Assembly (NCBI GenBank): GCA_964611385.1
Contig: CAZSXS010000001.1
Span: forward strand, 31,058 to 95,057
Length of the DNA: 64,000 nucleotides
DNA from: an uncultured Defluviitaleaceae bacterium
GTDB taxonomy: Bacteria > Bacillota > Clostridia > Lachnospirales > CAYPQA01
Reading direction: 5' to 3'
The notes beneath the pieces are model-generated. The model saw only the letters and a program-made list of their open reading frames with translations. It was not told the origin of the DNA and searched no databases. Of this stretch, positions 2,627 to 60,854 are shown piece after piece. A program made the position numbers and the translations under genes. Positions within the stretch are counted from its first letter, which is position 1, and the number at the start of each line of letters is the position of its first letter.

Positions 2627-2734
2627 CCCACGTCCGGCTTTTTTGAAAGATGAGGATGGGGGGTGTGGGGGGAAGGAGAAGAAAACTTTTTCGCCGTTTG
2701 AAAAAAGTTTTCTTCTCCTTCCCCCCACGGTCTT
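2627..2734 (+). repeat. R2 repeat copy 1 (stem 2667-2691 / 2701-2726, loop CGCCGTTTG)
   Basis: CCCACGTCCGGCTTTTTTGAAAG...GGGGGGTGTGGGGGG AAGGAGAAGAAAACTTTTT CGCCGTTTG AAAAAAGTTTTCTTCTCCTT CCCCCCACGGTCTT. Lies between era and the thioesterase gene. Confidence 0.9.
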
Positions 2735-2769: not shown

Positions 2770-3222
2770 ATGAAAACACCAAGAGATTCCCGTTCGGAAA
2801 CCACCCACCTGGTCATGGCCGGGGATACGAATCAAATGGGAAATTTGCATGGGGGAACCCTGATGCAATGGGTGGATATCATAGGGGCTGTGGCCGCCTC
2901 CCGCCATGCGGAAAGTATTGTGACCACAGCCGCCTTAGATAGTATGGATTTTAAAATGCCTGTCGCCCTAGGCGATATTGTGACATTGTATGCCCGGGTT
3001 ACTTGGACAGGGCGTAGCTCCATGGAAGTGCGGGTTGACGTGTACAAGGAACATCCGATCTGTCACAGAAAATCCTTGACCAACACGGCGTACTTGGTTT
3101 TTGTGGCTTTGGACGAAAACCGATTGCCCAAATCTGTCCCACCCTTCTACCCGGAAACGGAAGAGGAAAAAGTGGAATATGAGCAGGCAATCAAAAGACG
3201 TGAGATGAGGTTAAAGCGGTGA
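2770..3222 (+). CDS. hotdog-fold acyl-CoA thioesterase
   Basis: 150-aa ORF. The N-terminal block VMAGDTNQMGNLHGGTLMQWVD resembles the acyl-CoA hydrolase (YciA/BFIT-like) family. GGGAG RBS upstream. Confidence 0.65.
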   Translation: MKTPRDSRSETTHLVMAGDTNQMGNLHGGTLMQWVDIIGAVAASRHAESIVTTAALDSMDFKMPVALGDIVTLYARVTWTGRSSMEVRVDVYKEHPICHRKSLTNTAYLVFVALDENRLPKSVPPFYPETEEEKVEYEQAIKRREMRLKR

Positions 3223-12066: not shown

Positions 12067-13523
12067 AGTTTTCATGGAAGCTGTTTATGTGTACAATTTC
12101 AATCGTGGCAATCACCTTGGCATTTGGAGGGAATTATATCGTTAATTCCTTCTTCAGATCGGCCCTATCAAGAGAAACCAAGCAAGCGCTTGATGAAAGC
12201 GGCATGATTCGCTTTGCCTTCGAGACTGCAACGCTGAATATTCCTTCGAAATATGAACATCTTCAAGACCAGACCATTGCGCAAATTGGAGCGACCCTAG
12301 ATACAGGAGCGCAGAATCGATACATCAGAATCAGCGCGGAAAATGCGGATATGCTTTATGAAAGTGATGCATTTTGCGTGGATGATACTATTTTGAGTTC
12401 TGCTTCCAGCAAAGAGATCGCCTATAAAATTACAGCTGTAAATGAGAATTATTACATACAAACTGCCCTTAAGGTGAATACAGTCGACCGTGAAATTTAT
12501 CTTGAAACGCTAAAAAACATAACGACTATATTTGATGAACGTGCAGCCGGTTTTTTGGTCTATAAACAGCTTTGCATCATTGTGCTGTTATGCGAGGGCT
12601 TAATCATCTTCTTGCTTTCACGCTGGCTAACGCATCCGGTTCGATTGATTTCAACTGCAACAAGAAATATGGCCAAGGGGGAGTATAGTTATCGGGCTAA
12701 AAAGGTCAGTAATGATGAGCTTGGCTGGCTGACAGATAACTTTAATCAAATGGCGGGGGCCTTAGAAGAGCAGGTCGAGAAACTAAAGGAAGCGGCGCGG
12801 TCACAAGAGGAATTTGTTGGGGCGTTTGCGCATGAATTAAAGACCCCACTTACTGCAATCATAGGATATGCGGATATGCTTCGTTCTCAAAAACTAGATG
12901 AGGAAAAACTCATGCTATCGGCAGATTATATTTACCAAGAAGGCCGAAGGCTTGAAAAATTATCCTTCAATCTACTTGACATTATCGTTTTAAAACATGT
13001 CAATAAGCCCTCGTCCATATTCCTTGCCAGTACGCTATTTGAATATATAAAGGATACGTTTTCGAAAAGCAAGATTCGATTGACCTTAGCGTATGAGGAG
13101 AGCCCGATTGTTGGGGATTTGGTTCTGATTAAAACGTTATTAACGAATCTAATTGATAATGCCATTAAGGCCTCGAAGCCAGAAGACGCGATCCTGTTAA
13201 ACGGAGGGACAAGCCACAATCAATATATCTTTACCGTCAAAGATCATGGCTGCGGCATTTCGCCTGAGGATTTGGATAAGGTGACAAAAGCCTTCTACAT
13301 GGCGGACAAATCGCGCTCTCGAAGCCGCCATGGTGCTGGGCTTGGTCTTACCTTATGCCTTGAAATTGCGCGTTTGCACGGAAGTGAGTTAAAGATCGAA
13401 AGCGTAGTGGGTCTTGGAACCAGCATAAGCTTTGCGCTTGACATGGGCTTGCTTGACACAGGCTTTCTTGATATGGGCTCTTTTGATACAGACGGCACAA
13501 GGGAGAAGGGAGGACGGCATTGA
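12063..13523 (+). CDS. sensor histidine kinase (HAMP-HisKA-HATPase)
   Basis: Two TM segments and a HAMP domain. H-box FAHELKTPLT, N-box LIDNAIKAS, G-boxes DHGCGI and GAGLGL. ATGA overlap with the regulator gene. Confidence 0.9.
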   Translation: MKFSWKLFMCTISIVAITLAFGGNYIVNSFFRSALSRETKQALDESGMIRFAFETATLNIPSKYEHLQDQTIAQIGATLDTGAQNRYIRISAENADMLYESDAFCVDDTILSSASSKEIAYKITAVNENYYIQTALKVNTVDREIYLETLKNITTIFDERAAGFLVYKQLCIIVLLCEGLIIFLLSRWLTHPVRLISTATRNMAKGEYSYRAKKVSNDELGWLTDNFNQMAGALEEQVEKLKEAARSQEEFVGAFAHELKTPLTAIIGYADMLRSQKLDEEKLMLSADYIYQEGRRLEKLSFNLLDIIVLKHVNKPSSIFLASTLFEYIKDTFSKSKIRLTLAYEESPIVGDLVLIKTLLTNLIDNAIKASKPEDAILLNGGTSHNQYIFTVKDHGCGISPEDLDKVTKAFYMADKSRSRSRHGAGLGLTLCLEIARLHGSELKIESVVGLGTSISFALDMGLLDTGFLDMGSFDTDGTREKGGRH

Positions 13524-14487: not shown

Positions 14488-14590
14488 GTTATACTCAGTC
14501 TCTTAAGCACTTACCAAACCGCCATCATTCGACCTGCTTAAATTATATTTTTTTGTGTGGCGGCTTTGCAAAGCTGAACGTGACTGAGGT
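14488..14590 (+). repeat. R1 repeat, compact full copy
   Basis: Left arm GTTATACTCAGTCTCTTAAGCACTTACCAAACCGCCA, 33-nt interior, right arm TGGCGGCTTTGCAAAGCTGAACGTGACTGAGG. The outer 8 bp and inner 6 bp pair perfectly. Confidence 0.85.
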
Positions 14591-35474: not shown

Positions 35475-35891
35475 TTATTCTTCTAAATGTTCCAAGCCTT
35501 GATTTAGAATGGACTTGATGTGATGATCTGAAAGCGAATAAAACACAACCTTCCCTTCTCGCCTAAATTTAACAAGTCTGTTCGATTTTAGGACTTTGAG
35601 CTGATGAGAAATTGCGGATTGACTCATATTCAGTATACTAGCAATATCGCACACGCACATCTCCGATTCAAACAGAACATACAAAATCTTGATGCGAGTC
35701 GTGTCGCCAAAAACCTTATAAAGCTCAGCCAGATCATACAGTATCTCATCATCCGGCATCTTCTCGTTTACGCTTCTTACAACATCCTCATGAACACAAA
35801 GGCGCTCGCAGGTCGGTAAGCTGCTCTTATCATTTGTTTTGTTCGTTTCGTTTGTTTCGTTCGTTTCGTTTGTTTCGTTTGTTTCGTTCAT
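35475..35891 (-). CDS. cadC: ArsR/SmtB-family metalloregulator (CadC-like) with N-terminal (NET)n repeat
   Basis: alpha3 CVC site (SEMCVCDIA), N-terminal Cys pair (PTCERLC) and a winged HTH (SQSAISHQLKVLK). I prefer the ATG at 35891 (AGGTGA 8 nt upstream). The ORF-track GTG is at 35903. Confidence 0.7.
   Translation of the reverse strand: MNETNETNETNETNETNKTNDKSSLPTCERLCVHEDVVRSVNEKMPDDEILYDLAELYKVFGDTTRIKILYVLFESEMCVCDIASILNMSQSAISHQLKVLKSNRLVKFRREGKVVFYSLSDHHIKSILNQGLEHLEE
35839..35889 (-). repeat. in-frame 9-bp tandem repeat encoding (NET)4-NKT at the cadC-like N-terminus
   Basis: The plus strand reads GTTTCGTTT/GTTTCGTTC units. The peptide is MNETNETNETNETNKTND. Confidence 0.85.
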
Positions 35892-35992
35892 TTTTATTTT
35901 CACCTAACCTTTCTACGAATTTATATATGAGCAATCGTTCATATGAACTATACAGGATTCTCTAGATTCTGTCAAGATCAAAAATTTGGGCC

Positions 35993-36399: not shown

Positions 36400-36449
36400 T
36401 GGACACAGTTTTCTTGACAACTATTTAAATCTATGCAATAATATCTAAT

Positions 36450-37076
36450 ATGGATAGATTGATAACCATAGGTGAAGCGTCAAAAATATTAGGCGTATCT
36501 ATATCGACATTGAGAAGATGGGATAGAGAAGGAAGGCTCACACCTGAAAAAACAACGTCAGGACATCGCCGTTATGATATTTCTAAGCTAAAACCTGAAA
36601 TGTATAAAGAGCAAATAAAAGAGGCACGCAAAACAATAGCGTATGCGAGAGTATCAAGTCACGACCAAAAAGCTGATTTAGAAAGGCAAAAGCAAGTATT
36701 AGAACTTTATTGTGCAAAACAGGGTTGGATTTTTGAAATAATAAGTGATTTAGGCTCAGGAATGAATTACCATAAAAAAGGCTTGAAACGCTTATTGAAT
36801 GACATTTTGGCTGAGAAAGTCGGGCGGCTTGTTATTTCGCATAAAGACAGACTTTTGCGTTTTGGTGCAGAATTGATTTTTGCCATATGTGAAGCAAAGC
36901 AAGTCGAGGTTGTTATACTCAACCAAGGCGAAGATACAACTTTTGAAGAAGATTTGGCAAAAGATGTGTTGGAGATTATCACTGTCTTTTCTGCTCGTCT
37001 TTATGGTTCAAGGAGTTGTAAGAACCAAAAATTACTTGAAGATGTAAAAAAAGCAGTAGAGGCGGTGAGCGAATGA
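36450..37076 (+). CDS. tnpA: IS607-family serine recombinase/transposase TnpA
   Basis: MerR-like HTH (ITIGEASKILGVSISTLRRWDREGRL) followed by a resolvase catalytic domain (IAYARVSSHDQKADLERQ). Confidence 0.9.
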   Translation: MDRLITIGEASKILGVSISTLRRWDREGRLTPEKTTSGHRRYDISKLKPEMYKEQIKEARKTIAYARVSSHDQKADLERQKQVLELYCAKQGWIFEIISDLGSGMNYHKKGLKRLLNDILAEKVGRLVISHKDRLLRFGAELIFAICEAKQVEVVILNQGEDTTFEEDLAKDVLEIITVFSARLYGSRSCKNQKLLEDVKKAVEAVSE

Positions 37077-38266
37077 TTTTAGCTCACAAAATACAACTTG
37101 ACCCGAATAATGTTCAAGCAACCTATTTTGCCAAAGCTTGTGGTGTTGCTCGTTTTGCTTATAACTGGGGACTTGCTGAATGGAAAAGACTTTATGAAGC
37201 AGGTGAAAAGGTAAACGAAGGAATATTAAGAAAAAATCTAAACGCTATAAAAGGTGAGGAATTTCCTTGGATGCTTGAAGTCACAAAATGCGCTCCACAG
37301 TTGGCAATTAAAGACGGCTTAAACAAAGCGTTCCAAAACTTTTTTCGTGGATTAAAACAGGGTAACCCAGTCGGTTTTCCTAAGTTTCATAAAAAAGGTG
37401 TACACGACAGTTTTGCGTTGTCTAACGATCAATTTAGAATAGATGGCTTAAAAATCAAAATCCCTAATCTCGGTTGGGTTAGACTGACAGAAAAATTACG
37501 TTTTATCGGGAAAATAATAGGGGCCACAATTAGTCGTAAAGCAGATAGACGGTTCGTATCCGTGCAAGTAGAAATATCTGACCCTACACCAATTCATACA
37601 ACTGTTAGCGAAAACCAAGCAATAGGTGTTGATTTAGGCGTTAAGGATTTGGCAGTTTTATCAGACGGAACAAAGATAACAGGAACAAAACCACACAAAG
37701 CTTTACTATCACGATTACGTCGCCTTAATCAATCTCTTTCAAGAAAACAAGGTGCGAAAAAAGGCGAAAAGAAGTCTAAAAACTTCAAAAAAACACAAAT
37801 GAAGCTGTCAAGATTACACGCAAGAATAGCAAACATACGAGGCGATGAAACTCACAAGCTAACTACAATGCTAACTGATAATTATAGCCTTGTAGGTATT
37901 GAGGATTTGAATGTGTCGGGTATGGCTAAAAATCACAAATTGGCTCGTGCTGTCCTTGATATGAGTTTCTTTGAATTTCGCAGACAATTAGAGTATAAAA
38001 CAAAAATGAAGGGAGGGCACGTTATCATTGCGGATAGGTTTTATCCGTCCAGCAAAGCCTGCTCTTGTTGCGGTTATAAAAACAATGAATTGACTTTATC
38101 TGTACGTGAATGGATGTGTCCTAATTGCAAAACAACGCACGACAGAGACATTAATGCTGCAACAAATTTAAAGAATTACGCCGTGAGTTACACGGTGTCA
38201 GCCTGTGGAGAGTTAGTGGAAACAATCACCTCGAAGAAGCAGGAACTCAACATCACTGCCGAATAG
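37073..38266 (+). CDS. tnpB: TnpB (OrfB_IS605-type RNA-guided endonuclease family)
   Basis: RuvC-I GVDLGVKDLAVLSDG, zinc finger CSCCGYKN...CPNCKTTHDRDINAATN with RuvC-III. ATGA overlap with tnpA. Confidence 0.9.
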   Translation: MILAHKIQLDPNNVQATYFAKACGVARFAYNWGLAEWKRLYEAGEKVNEGILRKNLNAIKGEEFPWMLEVTKCAPQLAIKDGLNKAFQNFFRGLKQGNPVGFPKFHKKGVHDSFALSNDQFRIDGLKIKIPNLGWVRLTEKLRFIGKIIGATISRKADRRFVSVQVEISDPTPIHTTVSENQAIGVDLGVKDLAVLSDGTKITGTKPHKALLSRLRRLNQSLSRKQGAKKGEKKSKNFKKTQMKLSRLHARIANIRGDETHKLTTMLTDNYSLVGIEDLNVSGMAKNHKLARAVLDMSFFEFRRQLEYKTKMKGGHVIIADRFYPSSKACSCCGYKNNELTLSVREWMCPNCKTTHDRDINAATNLKNYAVSYTVSACGELVETITSKKQELNITAE

Positions 38267-41772: not shown

Positions 41773-41984
41773 TGATCTCTCTCCCTTTTAAATCCTCTCG
41801 AATAAGCCTATAAGTCTCGCGCTTTACTGAGTATATCCAAAATTTTCCGCTGTTTATCTTATCCCAAACGATTCACTCTTTCAAGTAATGAAAGCAAATT
41901 TTTCTGAGTCCTTCTAAAATCGTGTGAGGAAGGTCTAATCCCTCGTGAATTTTGAAGTCGCAGTTTTCTAAGGGTTTGTTAAAC

Positions 41985-42028
41985 GAAAAAAGCCCATGAA
42001 CCAGTCGTGTTCATGAGCATGCATTTTT
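41985..42028 (-). terminator. terminator of the fumarate hydratase transcript (after R2 copy 2)
   Basis: The minus strand reads GCTCATGAAC-ACGACTG-GTTCATGGGC TTTTTT. Confidence 0.7.
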
Positions 42029-42065
42029 TCGGCACTTACAAAATTTAAAATGATAAAACTCCAAC

Positions 42066-42175
42066 CCCACGTCCGGCTTTTTTGAAAGGTGGAGGAAGGG
42101 GGTGTGGGGGGGAGGAGGAGGAAAACTTTTTTCGCCGTTTGAAAAAAGTTTTCCTCCTCCTCCCCCCACGGTCTT
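42066..42175 (+). repeat. R2 repeat copy 2 (stem 42107-42132 / 42142-42167)
   Basis: Same architecture as copy 1, with stem GGGGGGAGGAGGAGGAAAACTTTTTT and a perfect complement. Lies just downstream of the minus-strand fumarate hydratase stop. Confidence 0.9.
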
Positions 42176-42180
42176 TCTCT

Positions 42181-43023
42181 CTACAAAATCACCGACTTGT
42201 GCCGAACCACATGACAGCAGACGTTCATCGCCACGGGGAAACCGGCAATGTGCGTTGGGAAGGACTCTGCGTGAACTGCCAGCGCTGTGATGCGCCCGCC
42301 TAGCCCCATGGGTCCTATGCCGGTTTGGTTGATTTTTCCTAGTAGCTCCTCTTCTAACTGTTGTAGAGAGGATTCGGGGGAGGCTTGTCCTATGGGGCGT
42401 AGTAGTGCTTTCTTGGCCATGATGGCGCACTTCTCAAAGTCGCCCCCAAGCCCTATCCCTACTAAAATGGGTGGACAGGGATTCCCGCCTGCTTCCACAA
42501 TGGCGCTTAGTATGAGTTCTTTGGCAGCCTCTATCCCCTGCGAGGGGGAAAGCATGAAGATGCGGCTCATGTTTTCGCTGCCAAAGCCTTTGGGGGCTAC
42601 CGTGAGCTTTAGATTGTCGCCCTTGACCAATTCATAGTGGATGATGGCTGGCGTGTTGTCGCCGGTGTTTTTGCGCTCATGAATGCCTTCTACTACAGAC
42701 TTGCGTAAAAAACCATCCCTATAGCCTTCACGTACGCCCTGGTTGATCAGATCCCCTATGAAGCCGCCTTCTATCCTTAAATCGGAACCGACTTCCGCAA
42801 ATACAACAGCCATGCCTGTGTCCTGGCAGATGGGGCATTGCTGTTGACGTGCCAGCTCTGCGTTTTGAATCAGGCTTTGTAGAATGTTCTTCCCGATTTC
42901 TGATTCCTCCGCAGCCAGCGCCTTGGATAAGGCCTCCTCGCCGTCTGGATTCAAAGCGCAGTTGGCCTCTATGCATAGCCTTTTGACGGCCTGAACGATG
43001 AGATCTGCTTTAATTGTTTTCAT
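42181..43023 (-). CDS. class I (Fe-S) fumarate hydratase / tartrate dehydratase, alpha subunit
   Basis: 280 aa with the family blocks CQDTGMAVVF and GIGLGGDFE, and C-terminal CCHVVRH. No beta-subunit gene follows. Confidence 0.75.
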   Translation of the reverse strand: MKTIKADLIVQAVKRLCIEANCALNPDGEEALSKALAAEESEIGKNILQSLIQNAELARQQQCPICQDTGMAVVFAEVGSDLRIEGGFIGDLINQGVREGYRDGFLRKSVVEGIHERKNTGDNTPAIIHYELVKGDNLKLTVAPKGFGSENMSRIFMLSPSQGIEAAKELILSAIVEAGGNPCPPILVGIGLGGDFEKCAIMAKKALLRPIGQASPESSLQQLEEELLGKINQTGIGPMGLGGRITALAVHAESFPTHIAGFPVAMNVCCHVVRHKSVIL

Positions 43024-48061: not shown

Positions 48062-48160
48062 TCACAATTTTCTAAAACATTTTCAAGCCGCTACCTTGCA
48101 GTATGGAAGACTTTACAGGGTTTGCATAGCGGCTCTGTAAAGTTGAACGTGACGGAGCAA
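48062..48160 (+). repeat. R1 repeat copy between DUF1292 gene and addB
   Basis: Left arm TTCTAAAACATTTTCAAGCCGCTA, right arm TAGCGGCTCTGTAAAGTTGAACGTGACGGAGC. Confidence 0.65.
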
Positions 48161-48161
48161 A

Positions 48162-48749
48162 TTATTTTTTGCTTCGAGAACCGTTTGTGCTGCTGTCATC
48201 CGCATCATCGTCAAAGTCGTCGTCTTCAAAATCGTCGTCGTCAAAGTCCTCATCATCGAAGTCCTCGTCATCAAAATCCTCATCGTCGAAATCGTCCTCA
48301 TCGAGTTCTTCTTCATCGTAGTCCTCATCGTCGAAATCGTCGTCGTCAAAGTCTTCATCGTCATCGTCTTCATCATCTTCATCGTCTACGTCATCTTCGT
48401 CGAACTCTTCGTCATCATCAAAATCATCCAGATTTTCATCCAAGTCTTCGAACAGCTCATTAAAAACCTTAAGAACAGCGTCGTATTCCTCATCGCTTTC
48501 GATGTTGTCAAGTTCCACATCCTCGTCCTTCTCAGTGTATCTGAAAATAAGCACGTGATCTTCCTGTAAAGGCAGCAGGGCAATATAGCTCCTTGCACCG
48601 ATTTCGAAATCCACGTCAAAAACGCCAAGAACATTACATTCAAGGTTGTCGTTTCCTTCCACCGAAATGATAACTGTTTCATTTCCTCCGCATCCGCAGC
48701 CGTCGTGACTGCATCCGCCGTTGCAACCATCATTGCAATGATCAGCCAT
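48162..48749 (-). CDS. DUF1292-family protein with Cys-rich N-terminus and poly-acidic C-terminal tail
   Basis: DUF1292-like core (LECNVLGVFDV..RSYIALLP...VLIFRY). N-terminus HCNDGCNGGCSHDGCGCGG. About 95-aa D/E/F tail (DEDFDD repeats). ATG at 48749 after GAGGTG. Confidence 0.7.
   Translation of the reverse strand: MADHCNDGCNGGCSHDGCGCGGNETVIISVEGNDNLECNVLGVFDVDFEIGARSYIALLPLQEDHVLIFRYTEKDEDVELDNIESDEEYDAVLKVFNELFEDLDENLDDFDDDEEFDEDDVDDEDDEDDDDEDFDDDDFDDEDYDEEELDEDDFDDEDFDDEDFDDEDFDDDDFEDDDFDDDADDSSTNGSRSKK
48165..48440 (-). repeat. low-complexity GAT/GAC/GAA-rich coding repeat (acidic tail)
   Basis: The plus strand shows reiterated TCGTCGTC/TCATCATC units. It encodes the D/E/F-rich tail of the DUF1292 protein and spawns shadow ORFs in other frames. 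Confidence 0.85.
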
Positions 48750-48869
48750 GATATTCACCTCATTATAAATTATCGTATGCATCCATTTCCATTCTGTTTT
48801 AAGTTACTGATATATCCTTGCATTATACCACAGGAATGAAAAATTGTAATCATTTTTTCAAAATATTTT

Positions 48870-49283: not shown

Positions 49284-49636
49284 GTACTCAGTCAAGTCTT
49301 GCTTGGCAATTATTTAGGAGACTGAGTAATTTTCACTTTGTTCACTTTGTTCGACTCTGCTTATCATGGCCAGCGCGGACAGGATTGTCCAATACTGGAG
49401 ATTGTCACTTCGGGGATAGTTCATTGTTTGAGGAGCATCCGTTCTCTCATTATAATATAGTCATGAAATTGGTAATTTATACCAACTTTTTAAAAAGGCA
49501 TTGCAAGTGAAGACTTTTATGCTGTTGGCTTCGTTTAAAATTAAGGAATATTTTAGGTGCTCGCTTAATAAAGTGTTTATGTACTTATCTTGTTTTGTGC
49601 GGGGGCTTTGCAACGCTGAACATGACTGAGTATATA
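49284..49636 (+). repeat. R1-related arms separated by ~290 nt
   Basis: Left GTACTCAGTCAAGTCTTGCTTGGCAA (49284-49309) and right GTGCGGGGGCTTTGCAACGCTGAACATGACTGAGTATATA (49597-49636). Whether they form one element is uncertain. Confidence 0.45.
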
Positions 49637-56919: not shown

Positions 56920-57626
56920 GCGAGAAAATCGAAAAGACCGAAAAAACACTTTGGGATTTTTACGGAGCGATCCAAAAAGAAAAGCCGATTGAACTGGGGC
57001 CGTACACCTCGTATCGCTTCCTTAACTCCCCCAGGCAGCTGCTCTTTTCCATTGCCAGATATAAATTTGCCGCCAAGCTCTTTGGGAGTAAGCAAAGAAT
57101 CCTAGAGCTTGGCGGGGGGGACGGCCTGGGGGCTTACTACCTGTCTGAGTTTGAGCATGAGGTAAGCTGTGTTGACTTTGACGGGACTTCCATCGGCTGG
57201 GCAAAGGAGAATCCTGTCCTTTCCCACATTCACTTTATTGAGGATAATTTTTTGGGTCAAAGCTATGGTGTGTTTGACGGCGTGGTTTCCTTTGATGTGC
57301 TGGAACATATTTATCCGCGTAACGAAGGTCTCTTCATGCACACGATCAAGAAAAACCTCTCGGAACACGGGGTCTTGATCCTGGGGACACCTTCCCTGGA
57401 AAGCCAGCAGTATGCCGGTAAGGACATCGGAGGCGCTCATGTCAATCTCTATACCGGCGAAGGCCTAAGGGAATTGCTCTCCGAGCATTTTCACCATGTT
57501 TTCTTGTTTACACAAAACGACGAAATCATCCATACAGGCTTTTTCCCCATGGCCAATTATCTCATTGCCCTTTGCTGCGGGAAAAAGGAATCTACGGACG
57601 GAGGTATTCATGAGCCAAGCCCATAA
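56916..57626 (+). CDS. class I SAM-dependent methyltransferase
   Basis: Motif I ILELGGGDGLG and post-I VDFD. ATGA overlap with the transketolase C subunit. Confidence 0.8.
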   Translation: MSEKIEKTEKTLWDFYGAIQKEKPIELGPYTSYRFLNSPRQLLFSIARYKFAAKLFGSKQRILELGGGDGLGAYYLSEFEHEVSCVDFDGTSIGWAKENPVLSHIHFIEDNFLGQSYGVFDGVVSFDVLEHIYPRNEGLFMHTIKKNLSEHGVLILGTPSLESQQYAGKDIGGAHVNLYTGEGLRELLSEHFHHVFLFTQNDEIIHTGFFPMANYLIALCCGKKESTDGGIHEPSP

Positions 57627-58698
57627 GCCGGAAGCCACACCTTACAGCCGATTAAAAATATTTCACCACGAGGAACTAATCAAAAAGCTGGGAACAGGAC
57701 AACGCTGTGCGCCTCTTCGTATCCGCATAAAGCCTACCAATCGCTGCAACCATAACTGTACCTTTTGCCACTACCTGAATCCCTACTTAACCTTGGATCA
57801 CTTCAAGCCCGATGACTTTATTGACCGCGAAAGAATGCTGTCCACGCTGCGGTCGATCCAAAAAGCCGGAACCAAGGCCATTGTCTTTTCCGGCGGCGGC
57901 GAACCGCTTCTTTATCCCTATATGGAAGACAGTGTGGAACTCGCCAAGAGCTTGGGTCTTGAATATGCCTTAATCACCAACGGAACCCTGCTGAAAGGGC
58001 GGCTGGCGGAACTGTTTGCGGAAGCCAAATGGGTAAGGATCTCCATCAATTCTGTCCGAGACGAGGTATACTGCAAAAGCCGGGACATCAAAGCGGGTGA
58101 ATTTACCAAGCTGTGCAGTGTGATTGAGTCCTTCGGCAAACAGAAAAAATCAGGCTGCGAACTGGGTATCAACTTTGTAATTGGGCCGGAAAACTACGCT
58201 GAGATCATTGAAGCCGGACTATTACTAAAATCCCTGGGCGTCAATCACATCAAATTCTCCGCCCAATTCAGCAACACCTTTCAGGAAGACCACGCTCCCT
58301 TTAAGGACGAAGCCCTACAACAGCTGGCAGAACTAAAGCAAGAGCAAACAGAAGCCTTCAAAATCATCAACTTATATGAAGGTGACCTGCAAGCCCACGG
58401 CACCTGCGCAACCTTCCGGCGCTCCTACTCACACTGTTACGCCAAGGAATTTTCCTGCGTGATCGGTGCAGACTCCAGGGTGTACTTCTGCCACGATAAG
58501 GCCTACCTCAAAGACGGCGTAGCCTTCGACCTGAAAGACGGTTCCTTTCACGAGCTTTGGGCAGCCCCCGAAATCCTCCAAAAGTACCAAGCCTTCCAAG
58601 CCGATCAGGTCTGCCCCCACCACTGTACATACGATGAATTAAATGCACTCCTTCATGCCTTTTTCGGGATAAAAAAAGAACATATCAATTTTATATAG
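57610..58698 (+). CDS. radical SAM enzyme (paralog 2)
   Basis: CNHNCTFCHY cluster motif and SGGGEP. N-terminal KIFHHEEL parallels KLIYHPEA of paralog 1. Ends ...HINFI. ATG at 57610 after GGAGG. Confidence 0.85.
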   Translation: MSQAHKPEATPYSRLKIFHHEELIKKLGTGQRCAPLRIRIKPTNRCNHNCTFCHYLNPYLTLDHFKPDDFIDRERMLSTLRSIQKAGTKAIVFSGGGEPLLYPYMEDSVELAKSLGLEYALITNGTLLKGRLAELFAEAKWVRISINSVRDEVYCKSRDIKAGEFTKLCSVIESFGKQKKSGCELGINFVIGPENYAEIIEAGLLLKSLGVNHIKFSAQFSNTFQEDHAPFKDEALQQLAELKQEQTEAFKIINLYEGDLQAHGTCATFRRSYSHCYAKEFSCVIGADSRVYFCHDKAYLKDGVAFDLKDGSFHELWAAPEILQKYQAFQADQVCPHHCTYDELNALLHAFFGIKKEHINFI

Positions 58699-58700
58699 AA

Positions 58701-58808
58701 GTTATACTCAGCTTCTTTAACAATTACCAAGCCCGCCATCATTCACCCCAAATGGATTCCACTGTTCTGCGTGGCGGCTTTGTAAAACTGAACGTGATAA
58801 CTATAACT
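58701..58808 (+). repeat. R1 repeat, compact full copy
   Basis: Left arm GTTATACTCAGCTTCTTTAACAATTACCAAGCCCGCCA, 33-nt interior, right arm TGGCGGCTTTGTAAAACTGAACGTGATAACTATAAC. Starts 3 nt after the radical-SAM stop. Confidence 0.85.
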
Positions 58809-58809
58809 C

Positions 58810-58914
58810 CCCACGCCCGGCTTTTTTGAAAGGGATAGGAGGGGTTTGGGGGAGGGAAGGGAAAACTTTTTTCGCCGTTTGAAAAAAGTTTCCCCTTCCC
58901 TCCCCCAAGGTCTT
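58810..58914 (+). repeat. R2 repeat copy 3 (stem 58848-58872 / 58882-58906)
   Basis: Same architecture, with stem GGGGGAGGGAAGGGAAAACTTTTTT and one A-C mismatch. Directly abuts R1 copy 58701-58808. Confidence 0.9.
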
Positions 58915-58934: not shown

Positions 58935-59597
58935 ATGCCGCAAATAACCCTTGTCTCACAACTTCATTGCCTAACAGGGCGAAATTATACTGAAAGAGTC
59001 GTAAAGTATGATAAGCCCGCCTGTGCGGAGGTGGCTAAACAGTTCGGGAAAGACTATTGGGATGGCGAAAGAAAGTTTGGCTATGGTGGCTATCGCTATG
59101 ACGGAAGATGGAGTCCAATAGCGGCTGCCCTGAGCGAACGGTATCAGCTCTGCGGCCAAAAGAAAGTCCTGGACGTGGGCTGTGGTAAGGGCTTTTTGCT
59201 CTATGAATTGACCCAACATAATCCTCAGCTTTCCGTGACTGGCCTTGACCCTTCTGTCTATGCCCTTGAACATGCCAAGGAGGAAGTTAAACCCTTCCTG
59301 CAAGTCGGTCGAGCCGAAGCCCTGCCCTTCCCTGATCATTCCTTTGACTTGGTCATTTCTGTAATGACCTTGCATAACCTCTACCTGTATGACCTCAAAA
59401 AAGCAGTCGAAGAAATCATTCGAGTCTCAAAGAAAGACGCCTACATCTGCGTTGAATCCTACCGTAACGAGCGGGAAAAAAATAACCTACTGTGCTGGCA
59501 GCTTACTTGTGAGGCTTTTTTTACTCCAGAGGAATGGGAGTGGCTCTTTGCCCAGTGGGGCTATGCGGGTGATTATGAGTTCCTTTATTTTGAATAA
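58935..59597 (+). CDS. class I SAM-dependent methyltransferase
   Basis: Motif I VLDVGCGKGFL. AAGGAGG RBS. Preceded by the R1+R2 composite repeat. Confidence 0.8.
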   Translation: MPQITLVSQLHCLTGRNYTERVVKYDKPACAEVAKQFGKDYWDGERKFGYGGYRYDGRWSPIAAALSERYQLCGQKKVLDVGCGKGFLLYELTQHNPQLSVTGLDPSVYALEHAKEEVKPFLQVGRAEALPFPDHSFDLVISVMTLHNLYLYDLKKAVEEIIRVSKKDAYICVESYRNEREKNNLLCWQLTCEAFFTPEEWEWLFAQWGYAGDYEFLYFE

Positions 59598-60608: not shown

Positions 60609-60854
60609 ATTCTCAGTCTCCTAAGCTGTTGCCAAGCCACCATAATCATAAAGCACACTCTACTCGGGCAAAATGCAAGTAAAGCGATCCGATGAAAGCC
60701 CCGAAAGGGATACCGCCCCAAACGTCTTACGCCCAGTACAAGTGTAGGGCGGTGTCCCTTTCGGGGCTTGGACGTGAATAACGATGTTGCTTGATACGTG
60801 TGTATCGCTTGTCATAGTACGTGGCAGCCTTGCAAAGCTGACAGTGACTGAGCA
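60606..60854 (+). repeat. R1 repeat, expanded copy enclosing a 22-bp GC-rich hairpin
   Basis: Left arm AATATTCTCAGTCTCCTAAGCTGTTGCCAAGCCACCA, right arm GTGGCAGCCTTGCAAAGCTGACAGTGACTGAGCA. Interior hairpin 60697-60718 / 60747-60768. Confidence 0.8.

Follow-up and report, generated by a model that had tools for sequence, protein, structure and literature searches.

R2, a dispersed intergenic repeat of uncultured Lachnospirales whose three arms covary by the triplet rules of a predicted intrastrand DNA triple helix

An uncultured Defluviitaleaceae bacterium carries a short repeat, here termed R2, the copies of which differ by changes that are matched on both arms of a long stem, and this raises the question which structure is kept while its sequence changes and whether it acts in RNA or in DNA. 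The window analyzed here, i.e., the whole stretch of 64,000 nucleotides (nt) of contig CAZSXS010000001.1 (assembly GCA_964611385.1, positions 31,058 to 95,057 of the forward strand), contains three copies of ~108 nt at positions 2627-2735, 42065-42176 and 58809-58914, all on the + strand, which agrees in number, place and orientation with the initial annotation of this DNA. Over the whole family the length is ~85-110 nt. The conserved blocks TTTTCGCCGTTTGAAAAAAG and CCACGTCCGGCTTTTTTGAAAG gave exactly three matches each in the window with up to three mismatches permitted, compared with 0.01 in shuffled sequences. Along the + strand the element consists of a 5' block, a third arm U, a turn of 3-4 nt, a purine arm L, a loop, a pyrimidine arm R and a 3' tail, and the order U-turn-L-loop-R is found in 3/3 window copies and in the relatives. 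What changes between the copies is the purine core, with loop, T/A block and 3' tail fixed.

The arms L and R form a hairpin with a stem of 25-28 bp per window copy, closed by the 9-nt loop CGCCGTTTG. Folding of the hairpins yielded -62 to -73 kcal/mol as RNA (z -5.4 to -7.9 compared with shuffles) and -32 to -42 kcal/mol as DNA (z -5.0 to -9.2). In the 14-nt purine core each pairwise comparison of the window copies shows four transitions, every one of them mirrored on the pyrimidine arm, and in copy 1 L matches its own R at 19/19 Watson-Crick positions compared with 13-15 when arms of different copies are combined. The few irregularities of the stem are one A·C mismatch in copy 3, a one-nt A bulge in copy 1 (T5 versus A6) and a G7 facing C6 in copy 2. 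A model-fitted alignment of 14 family members showed 12 of 21 modelled pairs changed on both sides with 99.7% of the cells paired, which was reached by 0/500 shuffles. The matched stem changes that had been noticed initially are real and exceed chance. Their interpretation as selection on pairing stands as far as the compensated stem is concerned, but the constrained structure has three strands and goes beyond a simple hairpin.

The third strand is the arm U, which had been described as a short purine-rich spacer and covaries with the stem. Reversed and without gaps, U is a mirror image of L, and 24/26, 22/26 and 20/24 of its positions in copies 1, 2 and 3, respectively, obey the triplex rules. 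U and L mirror each other about the TGT/TTT turn, as in the homopurine·homopyrimidine mirror repeats that form H-DNA in duplex DNA, and R2 in addition contains the complement of L, the arm R, in the strand that holds U and L. In a gap-free alignment anchored at the loop, U, L and the complement of R are in register in all copies, and a single rule describes this register: the T5-6 G1-2 of U reads the loop-proximal purines A5-6 G1-2 of R in parallel orientation (T·A-T, G·G-C), exactly one A-T pair is skipped, and the remainder of U reads the purines of L in antiparallel orientation (G·G-C, A·A-T, T·A-T). Under this rule 25/25, 24/25 and 22/23 triplets are canonical in copies 1, 2 and 3; omission of the block of seven triplets read by T6-G leaves 18/18, 17/18 and 15/16 for the purine-reading block only. 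The same rule gives 17-18/18 in six A-type variants from other Defluviitaleaceae, and three B-type copies reach 13/13, 13/13 and 12/13. Where the stem of copy 3 has its A·C mismatch, U agrees with the purine arm, and the junction block covaries as well, being G/C/G in the window type and GG/CC/GG in the A type. Across nine distinct copies, 9/12 core positions are found as a full G·G-C triplet in some copies and as a full A(T)·A-T triplet in others, and only ~6 cells are incomplete. Pairing each U with the L of its own copy gave the top score of all 362,880 permutations of the nine copies (P = 5.5e-6), a value that overstates independence, as the copies are related by descent. The three arms change together between copies as the triplet rules of DNA triple helices require, and R2 has the sequence of a class I, purine-motif, alternate-strand intrastrand triplex with up to 25 predicted triplets.

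This arrangement was recovered in two further ways, both independent of how the copies had been found. Searched de novo for class I triplexes whose purine arms measure 10 nt or more, the window yielded the three R2 copies and no other site, on the - strand as well, and 200 shuffles yielded none. The key AAAACTTTTT N4-10 AAAAAGTTTT, in which neither U nor the purine core is included, yielded in viral contigs one match with a purine-extended stem, an element of the + strand at about 12525-12600 of IMG/VR contig 3300027542_000092 (locus L223). It reads T6 G AAAGGTTGGGGG / GGGGGAAGGAAAAC T6 / A6 G TTTTCCTTCCCCC and by hand count reaches 19/19 under the register rule, with two T·A-T triplets; this long class I element has another loop and does not carry the AAGGTCTT tail. 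Watson-Crick pairing of U with R or with the CCCCACG of the 5' block was judged by eye and rejected, as only the G/C runs could pair, the A/G pattern is mirrored and not direct, and U varies next to an invariant 5' block. The claim that L is never the odd arm is true for the A-type and window copies and fails in two B-type copies (L011:4968 and L005:1752).

Whether the structure is to be assigned to DNA or RNA can be approached by the rules for third strands. According to textbook rules, G/T strands bind in parallel or antiparallel orientation, G/A strands bind antiparallel and T/C strands need protonated C, and T opposite A is allowed only in the antiparallel purine/GT motif (PMC2532714). In the purine-reading part of U, 7/8 T residues stand opposite A, a substitution that fits DNA and not RNA. 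On the - strand the T residues of U would become A mismatches in a pyrimidine-motif third strand. For RNA, the purine motif was reported not to form (reference 43 as cited in PMC4666352). Among 16 copies, the element lies on the same strand as the downstream gene in eight and on the opposite strand in eight, and several copies are antisense to all their surroundings. Altogether, a role in RNA fits less well than a role in DNA. Action at the DNA level is the better of the two options that had been put forward, and given the three-stranded constraint an RNA hairpin is unlikely. The pairing of Shine-Dalgarno and anti-Shine-Dalgarno motifs that had been seen in the stem is a by-product of the all-purine arm, and the downstream genes possess ribosome-binding sites of their own after the element. 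A regulator working through these motifs was rejected on both grounds and for the mixed orientation of the copies.

Copy 1 begins with the 5' block CCCACGTCCGGC (2627-2638), which is conserved in 3/3 window copies, followed by U, TTTTTTG AAAGATGAGGATGGGGGG (2639-2663; mirroring L as given above), by the turn TGT at the centre of mirror symmetry (2664-2666), by L, GGGGGGAAGGAGAAGAAAAC TTTTT (2667-2691), by the loop (2692-2700), identical in all three window copies, and by R, AAAAAAG TTTTCTTCTCCTTCCCCCC (2701-2726), the Watson-Crick partner of L. Its 3' tail ACGGTCTTT (2727-2735) is conserved across the window type and subfamilies A, B and C and reads AAGGTCTT in most relatives. In copy 2 the 5' block CCCCACGTCCGGC (42065-42077) is followed by U, TTTTTTG AAAGGTGGAGGAAGGGGG (42078-42102), the turn TGTG (42103-42106), L, GGGGGGAGGAGGAGGAAAAC TTTTTT (42107-42132), the loop (42133-42141), R, AAAAAAG TTTTCCTCCTCCTCCCCCC (42142-42167), and the tail ACGGTCTTT (42168-42176). 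Copy 3 is composed of the 5' block CCCCACGCCCGGC (58809-58821), U, TTTTTTG AAAGGGATAGGAGGGG (58822-58844), the turn TTTG (58845-58848), L, GGGGAGGGAAGGGAAAAC TTTTTT (58849-58872), the loop (58873-58881), R, AAAAAAG TTTCCCCTTCCCTCCCCC (58882-58906), and the tail AAGGTCTT (58907-58914). All of these features lie on the + strand. In each copy, L is supported by folding, the register rule and the de novo scan, and R by folding, own-copy pairing and the register rule. The CGGC of the 5' block of copy 1 is complementary to GCCG in the hairpin loop, and of the 5' block the other Defluviitaleaceae copies retain only TTCGGC. A pseudoknot between these two motifs is geometrically possible and is no more than a speculation.

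None of the three copies lies within a gene. Copy 1 separates era (1676-2587) from a gene for a 4HBT thioesterase (2770-3222), and copy 3 separates a radical-SAM gene (57496-58698) from a methyltransferase gene (58935-59597); as observed initially, both end shortly before a start codon, at a distance of 35 nt (2770) and 20 nt (58935), respectively. Copy 2, in contrast to its earlier placement antisense within the 3' region of a gene, has the end of its 3' tail 5 nt past the stop codon (42181-42183) of the minus-strand gene for fumarate hydratase alpha (42181-43023), in which the Pfam Fumerase domain extends to the C-terminus, and it sits between this stop codon and the gene's own terminator on the - strand (42018-41992). 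It was noted in addition that this gene has no neighbouring gene for the beta subunit (window positions 41773-43023) and that copy 2 fills its 3' untranslated stretch. As an intrinsic terminator the element itself was rejected, since its stem is followed by A(A/C)GGTCTT without an adjacent T run and the scan calls the terminator at 42018-41992 and not the element. TAATAT-like hexamers stand 6-8 nt before copies 1-3 with no consistent -35 element and were judged to be a coincidence.

Relatives were searched with the loop 20-mer in a scan that covered one genome per species, and this yielded 13 true copies in three uncultured Defluviitaleaceae metagenome-assembled genomes (MAGs; order Lachnospirales) in addition to four chance matches. 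These copies keep the loop, the T6/A6 block, the GGCTTTTTTG block and the AAGGTCTT tail; their purine/pyrimidine stems are shorter (13 bp), and the differences between copies are again matched. A covariance model built from them recovered more diverged subfamilies in the same loci, of which the B-type copies have other loops (CTTCAG and CTCCGG) and the C type comprises mini forms of the sequence CGGGGG-TTT-GGGGGC-AGA-GCCCCC-AAGGTCTT. At two loci (L009:7444-7641 and L017:6419-6610) a long A-type copy is accompanied ~50 nt upstream by an inverted C-type mini fused to an intrinsic terminator hairpin; these composite loci are 81% identical over 188 nt and recall the paired inverted TMECOs of E. 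coli. In viral contigs the loop 20-mer gave no match. The metagenome key GGCTTTTTTG N25-55 TTTGAAAAAAG returned, among the matches listed, an unrelated abundant repeat, GGCTTTTTTGAGGCCAAATTTGTAATTTTTGGCC..., and no new R2 copy. That unrelated repeat (GGCTTTTTTGAGGCCAAATTTGTAATTTTTGGCC...TTTTTGAAAAAAGGCCAAAT..., ~130 nt) is very abundant in a few JGI metagenomes (L020, L022, L023 and at least about 50 other loci). The Rfam scan of the window gave no match at gathering score and only sub-threshold generic hairpin and miRNA models in E-value mode, which bears out the impression that R2 is no named RNA family, and a literature search did not find the characteristic sequences of R2.

Widespread among IMG/VR contigs is a mini form of the general pattern GGGG(G)-TTT-GGGG(G)N-loop-N'CCCC(C)-AAGGTYTT, and in 13/17 mini copies (hand tally) U and L mirror each other at the base beside the G-run. 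Two independent diversity-generating retroelements (DGRs) carry such a mini where the variable repeat ends, immediately behind the target gene's stop codon (L153:7118-7156 on the - strand, which equals L154:8010-8048 on the + strand, and L159:4606-4638 on the - strand). Here the template repeat follows ~90-130 nt downstream, Rfam RT-4 and RT-18 RNAs are adjacent, and the mismatches between the repeats fall at template A in 13/14 and 19/22 cases, respectively. A G-run third arm thus adjoins the 'cruciform' of these DGRs.

In the genomes R2 behaves as a dispersed repeat. All 16 loop-matched copies (16/16) are intergenic, and the distance from the 3' end to a gene boundary is about 0-35 nt. No relationship is seen between the flanks of different copies, and the copies are not internal parts of a larger mobile element, as had been asked of them at the outset. 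Near-identical copies occur at different loci in two MAG species, e.g., L003 and L016 compared with L005 and L015. Logan short-read contigs of the window genome (L138, L139 and L143; SRR10912415/6) end at 2659 and 2728, both inside copy 1. The closest relative available, which shares the gene order ybeY-DUF3048-era-thioesterase-recO and has an Era of 69% identity, shows a 4-nt overlap of era with the thioesterase gene, compared with a spacer of 182 bp containing copy 1 in the window. Such a pattern is that of a dispersed repeat which was at least formerly mobile; support for the mobility itself is weak.

The window contains further repeats and mobile DNA. A second repeat family has five copies on the + strand (14519-14588, 48088-48157, 49561-49630, 58733-58802 and 60821-60852), with a core GTGGCGGCTTTGCAAAGCTGAACGTGACTGAG after a CCGCCA...TGGCGG hairpin and no Rfam match, and it might represent a promoter, an operator or a leader motif; its copy at 58733-58802 is truncated at GTGA and abuts R2 copy 3, and a weaker look-alike precedes copy 2. 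A unit of the IS607 type (36429-38263, + strand) encodes a TnpA serine recombinase (MerR HTH and Resolvase) followed by TnpB (OrfB_IS605 and Cas12f-like TNB domains) and has no R2-like ends. The 13 nt around the putative -10 element of its tnpA (CAATAATATCTAA) match the sequence upstream of copy 1 at 12/13 positions, probably by chance. A 15-nt-periodic repeat (48175-48458, - strand, within the open reading frame 48165-48803) encodes an acidic, Asp/Glu-rich tract of a DUF1292 protein, and ~7 units of the 9-nt tandem repeat TCGTTTGTT at 35830-35892 overlap the 5' end of the minus-strand open reading frame of an ArsR-type regulator (35478-35903).

We consider it on balance probable that R2 is a family of short non-coding intergenic DNA repeats, the purine-rich strand of which folds into a three-stranded helix when it is unpaired, and that only copies competent for this fold have spread. 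L and R pair as a Watson-Crick hairpin, and U would fold back into its major groove. In vivo the fold would form at the DNA level, on DNA that is transiently single-stranded or extruded under supercoiling, and the invariant loop and the tail may be read by a protein acting in trans, so that the triplex core would need only to keep its geometry. The element would spread, or would have spread, as a non-autonomous repeat, and since only copies that keep the three-stranded fold would stay competent, three-way compensation would result. Polymerase stalling and local instability, as reported for the E. coli triplex repeats, may be side effects. Selection through the repeat's own propagation is the source of constraint that we prefer, and a recombination signal serving the host or a retroelement is its main rival.

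Several points weigh against this proposal. The folding energies were computed for the duplex only, since a triplex is beyond what ViennaRNA models. The sample is small, with nine distinct long copies and a few B-type and mini forms, and the permutation value is affected by their common descent. An intact hairpin stands beside a decayed U at L005:3368-3438, and at L011:6681-6767 a different hairpin takes the place of U and R alone compensates for a G-to-T change in L; as these copies retain the hairpin without a matching U, the third arm is not needed for mere persistence. The contact between CGGC and the loop GCCG has no support from covariation and is mismatched in L002 and L005. Identity of the loop in the 13 Defluviitaleaceae copies is not independent evidence, as the loop was the search key. 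With regard to mobility, the sole empty site comes from a distant relative, no target-site duplication or defined end is visible at the boundaries of any copy, and no associated transposase was found, the window's only insertion sequence being the unrelated IS607-type one. Moreover, G-rich purine-motif triplexes compete with self-association of the G-quadruplex type in K+. For the TMECO repeats of E. coli a triplex was found with single-stranded DNA in vitro and none was detected in vivo (PMC4666352).

The closest competing explanation accepts the same three-stranded DNA architecture and places its selection elsewhere, i.e., in a service to the host or to a retroelement, in which a cruciform or triplex driven by supercoiling would act as a recombination, priming or fork-pausing signal in analogy to the hairpin/cruciform of DGRs. 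It draws on the mini relatives just past the stop codons of DGR target genes (L153/L154 and L159), on the DGR of BPP-1, the hairpin of which needs a stem as a structure and not as a sequence together with a specific loop and works in any orientation (PMC3240598), a pattern to which that of R2 is alike, and on TMECO loci with raised local variability (PMC4666352). We nevertheless regard it as unlikely: no variable or template repeat stands beside any long copy, no reverse transcriptase motif (open reading frame of the YxDD type) was seen in the window or in the Defluviitaleaceae loci, the link to DGRs comprises two independent loci of 16 viral loci with the mini motif, and a density of ~1 copy per 20 kb at intergenic sites of housekeeping genes is hard to square with a targeted signal. 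Less probable still is the idea favoured by the initial annotation, a very stable transcribed stem-loop that acts in cis on the mRNA by stabilisation, processing, termination or occlusion of the ribosome-binding site. The predicted RNA hairpins are indeed very stable, A-G transitions may pass via G·U (two copies, L004 and L009, have G·T in the + sense), copies 1 and 3 stand in operon spacers just upstream of genes, and copy 2 and five relatives follow closely on a convergent gene's stop codon. Such an element, however, has no match to an Rfam family; with the 8:8 orientation half of the copies would present the other strand; no U-run directly follows the stem, and the terminator scan was negative on the element. 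A hairpin also leaves the mirroring of the stem by the 5' arm unexplained, the + strand would need a purine-motif triplex, i.e., the form reported not to arise in RNA (PMC4666352), and the Shine-Dalgarno-like strings follow from the all-purine constraint.

An RNA triple helix could also be sought on the other strand, where transcripts would be protected in 3' untranslated regions by a pyrimidine-motif helix (C+·G-C, U·A-U), a bacterial analogue of helices of the ENE/MALAT1 type. On the - strand the arms do follow each other as in class III (purine, pyrimidine, Hoogsteen), RNA can adopt pyrimidine-motif intrastrand triplexes (reference 42 as cited in PMC4666352), and in 6/16 copies the start is no more than ~10 nt away from the stop codon of a gene that lies on the element's - strand. 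More than half of the triplets, however, would be C+·G-C, with runs of 5-7 among them, and these need protonation (PMC2532714), the T residues of U would become A mismatches in the Hoogsteen strand, and half of the copies are wrongly oriented, all of which makes this explanation very improbable. We give least credence of all to a plain palindrome or cruciform that is kept perfect by intrastrand template switching, with the similarity of the 5' arm an accident of low complexity. Foldback copying can homogenise long perfect inverted repeats, and purine tracts are low in complexity; but no copying mechanism yields mirror repeats, i.e., reversals on the same strand, the own-copy match of U and L beats every permutation, the independent L223 element reaches 19/19, and class I motifs are absent from the shuffles. 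Foldback copying, offered earlier as a possible source of the palindrome, is excluded by the three-stranded constraint as a sufficient explanation.

A bolder version of the preferred proposal, that of a repeat propagating by means of its DNA fold, goes further in that an alternate-strand DNA triple helix of ~25 triplets would be kept by selection in bacterial chromosomes, that the folded strand would be the recognised form of a new class of mobile or recombination elements specified by structure, and that the minis would be cruciform signals of some DGRs. We put this forward tentatively and with more doubt than belief. If true, it would be the first proof from comparative genomics, by three-way covariation, of functional intramolecular DNA triplexes in vivo, the existence and role of which in living bacteria have been open for decades. 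The triplex repeats of E. coli are nearly identical and therefore carry no evolutionary signal on structure, whereas the core of R2 varies and its three arms covary. RNA secondary structures were established by evidence of this kind, which here reaches a third strand; for a DNA triplex under selection it is rare, and the field had lacked evolutionary evidence of a DNA triple helix. R2 thereby offers a testable system of short oligonucleotides with natural compensatory 'mutants', and triplex arms may have been overlooked beside the hairpins used by DGRs. As a practical effect, R2 repeats fragment short-read assemblies of this lineage.

In comparison with known systems, R2 resembles several classes of structured DNA to different degrees. 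With REP/BIME and MITE repeats it shares that it is short, structured, intergenic, multi-copy, assembly-breaking and present or absent between relatives. REP/BIME sequences are imperfect palindromes of 20-40 bp with a 5' GTAG tetranucleotide and are mobilised by RAYT. Unlike REP, R2 has no GTAG head and is longer, and no RAYT was seen nearby in the 64-kb window and the 8-kb loci; unlike a MITE, it has no terminal inverted repeats apart from the hairpin and no target-site duplication, and it has a three-arm architecture. The target hairpins of DGRs were shown to depend on the structure and not on the sequence of the stem, on a specific loop sequence and not on orientation (Guo et al. 2011, PMC3240598). 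They consist of GC-rich stems of 7-10 bp with 4-nt GRNA loops, lie 4-34 bp downstream of the variable repeat, and no third arm was described for them (PMC3240598). In analogy, R2 has a conserved loop and a stem maintained by structure, and it would act at the DNA level and independently of orientation; in contrast, the window copies have mixed stems of 25-28 bp and a 9-nt loop and are found without a nearby variable repeat, template repeat or reverse transcriptase. The relation to DGRs is one of functional analogy, and the source of a rival explanation, and not one of membership.

The described kind to which R2 comes closest is that of intrastrand triplex repeats, represented by the PIT elements of Hoyne and Maher 2000, as cited by Holder et al., and the ITxF survey of Holder et al. 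2015, and divided into four classes in the account given by that survey (PMC4666352). R2 corresponds to class I in that reverse-Hoogsteen arm, purine arm and pyrimidine arm follow each other on one strand and in that G·G-C and A(T)·A-T triplets are used, and like these elements it is multi-copy, intergenic and non-coding and has no strand bias. Its turn of 3-4 nt fits both the ITxF (1-6 nt) and the Hoyne limits (0-10 nt) as these are quoted in the survey, and its 9-nt loop fits the latter only (PMC4666352). R2 differs in that its arms comprise 18-25 triplets compared with the 6-15 searched by ITxF (PMC4666352), in that its third strand is of the alternate-strand type and switches at the T/A block, unlike the ITxF/PIT motifs, in its hypervariable core with three-way compensation, which is not reported for the known ITxF/PIT motifs, and in its hosts, uncultured Lachnospirales, which lie outside that survey. 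Synthetic alternate-strand triple helices, in which one third strand reads both duplex strands in turn and combines parallel and antiparallel G/T/A motifs, are represented by de Bizemont et al. 1996 and 1998, as listed in PMC2532714; compared with the oligonucleotides as referred to there, R2 is a natural repeat and not designed, and its junction skips a constant one base pair. The best-known natural case is BoxC/TMECO of E. coli, a class II repeat with 9-nt arms and 23 nearly identical intergenic copies in MG1655 without strand bias, which has the consensus CCCTCNCCC-N3-6-GGGNGAGGG-N3-GGGNGAGGG in the order pyrimidine arm, purine arm, reverse-Hoogsteen arm, and which has no known function and is associated with local instability (PMC4666352). 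R2 and BoxC/TMECO are both G-rich purine-motif triplex repeats and some copies of both occur as inverted pairs, in R2 at L009 and L017; they differ in that the block order is opposite, the sequences are unrelated, and the arms of R2 are variable and two to three times longer and its hairpin loop larger. By its block order and triplets, R2 belongs to the intrastrand triplex repeats as a class I member, and within this kind it is a new family distinct from BoxC/TMECO.

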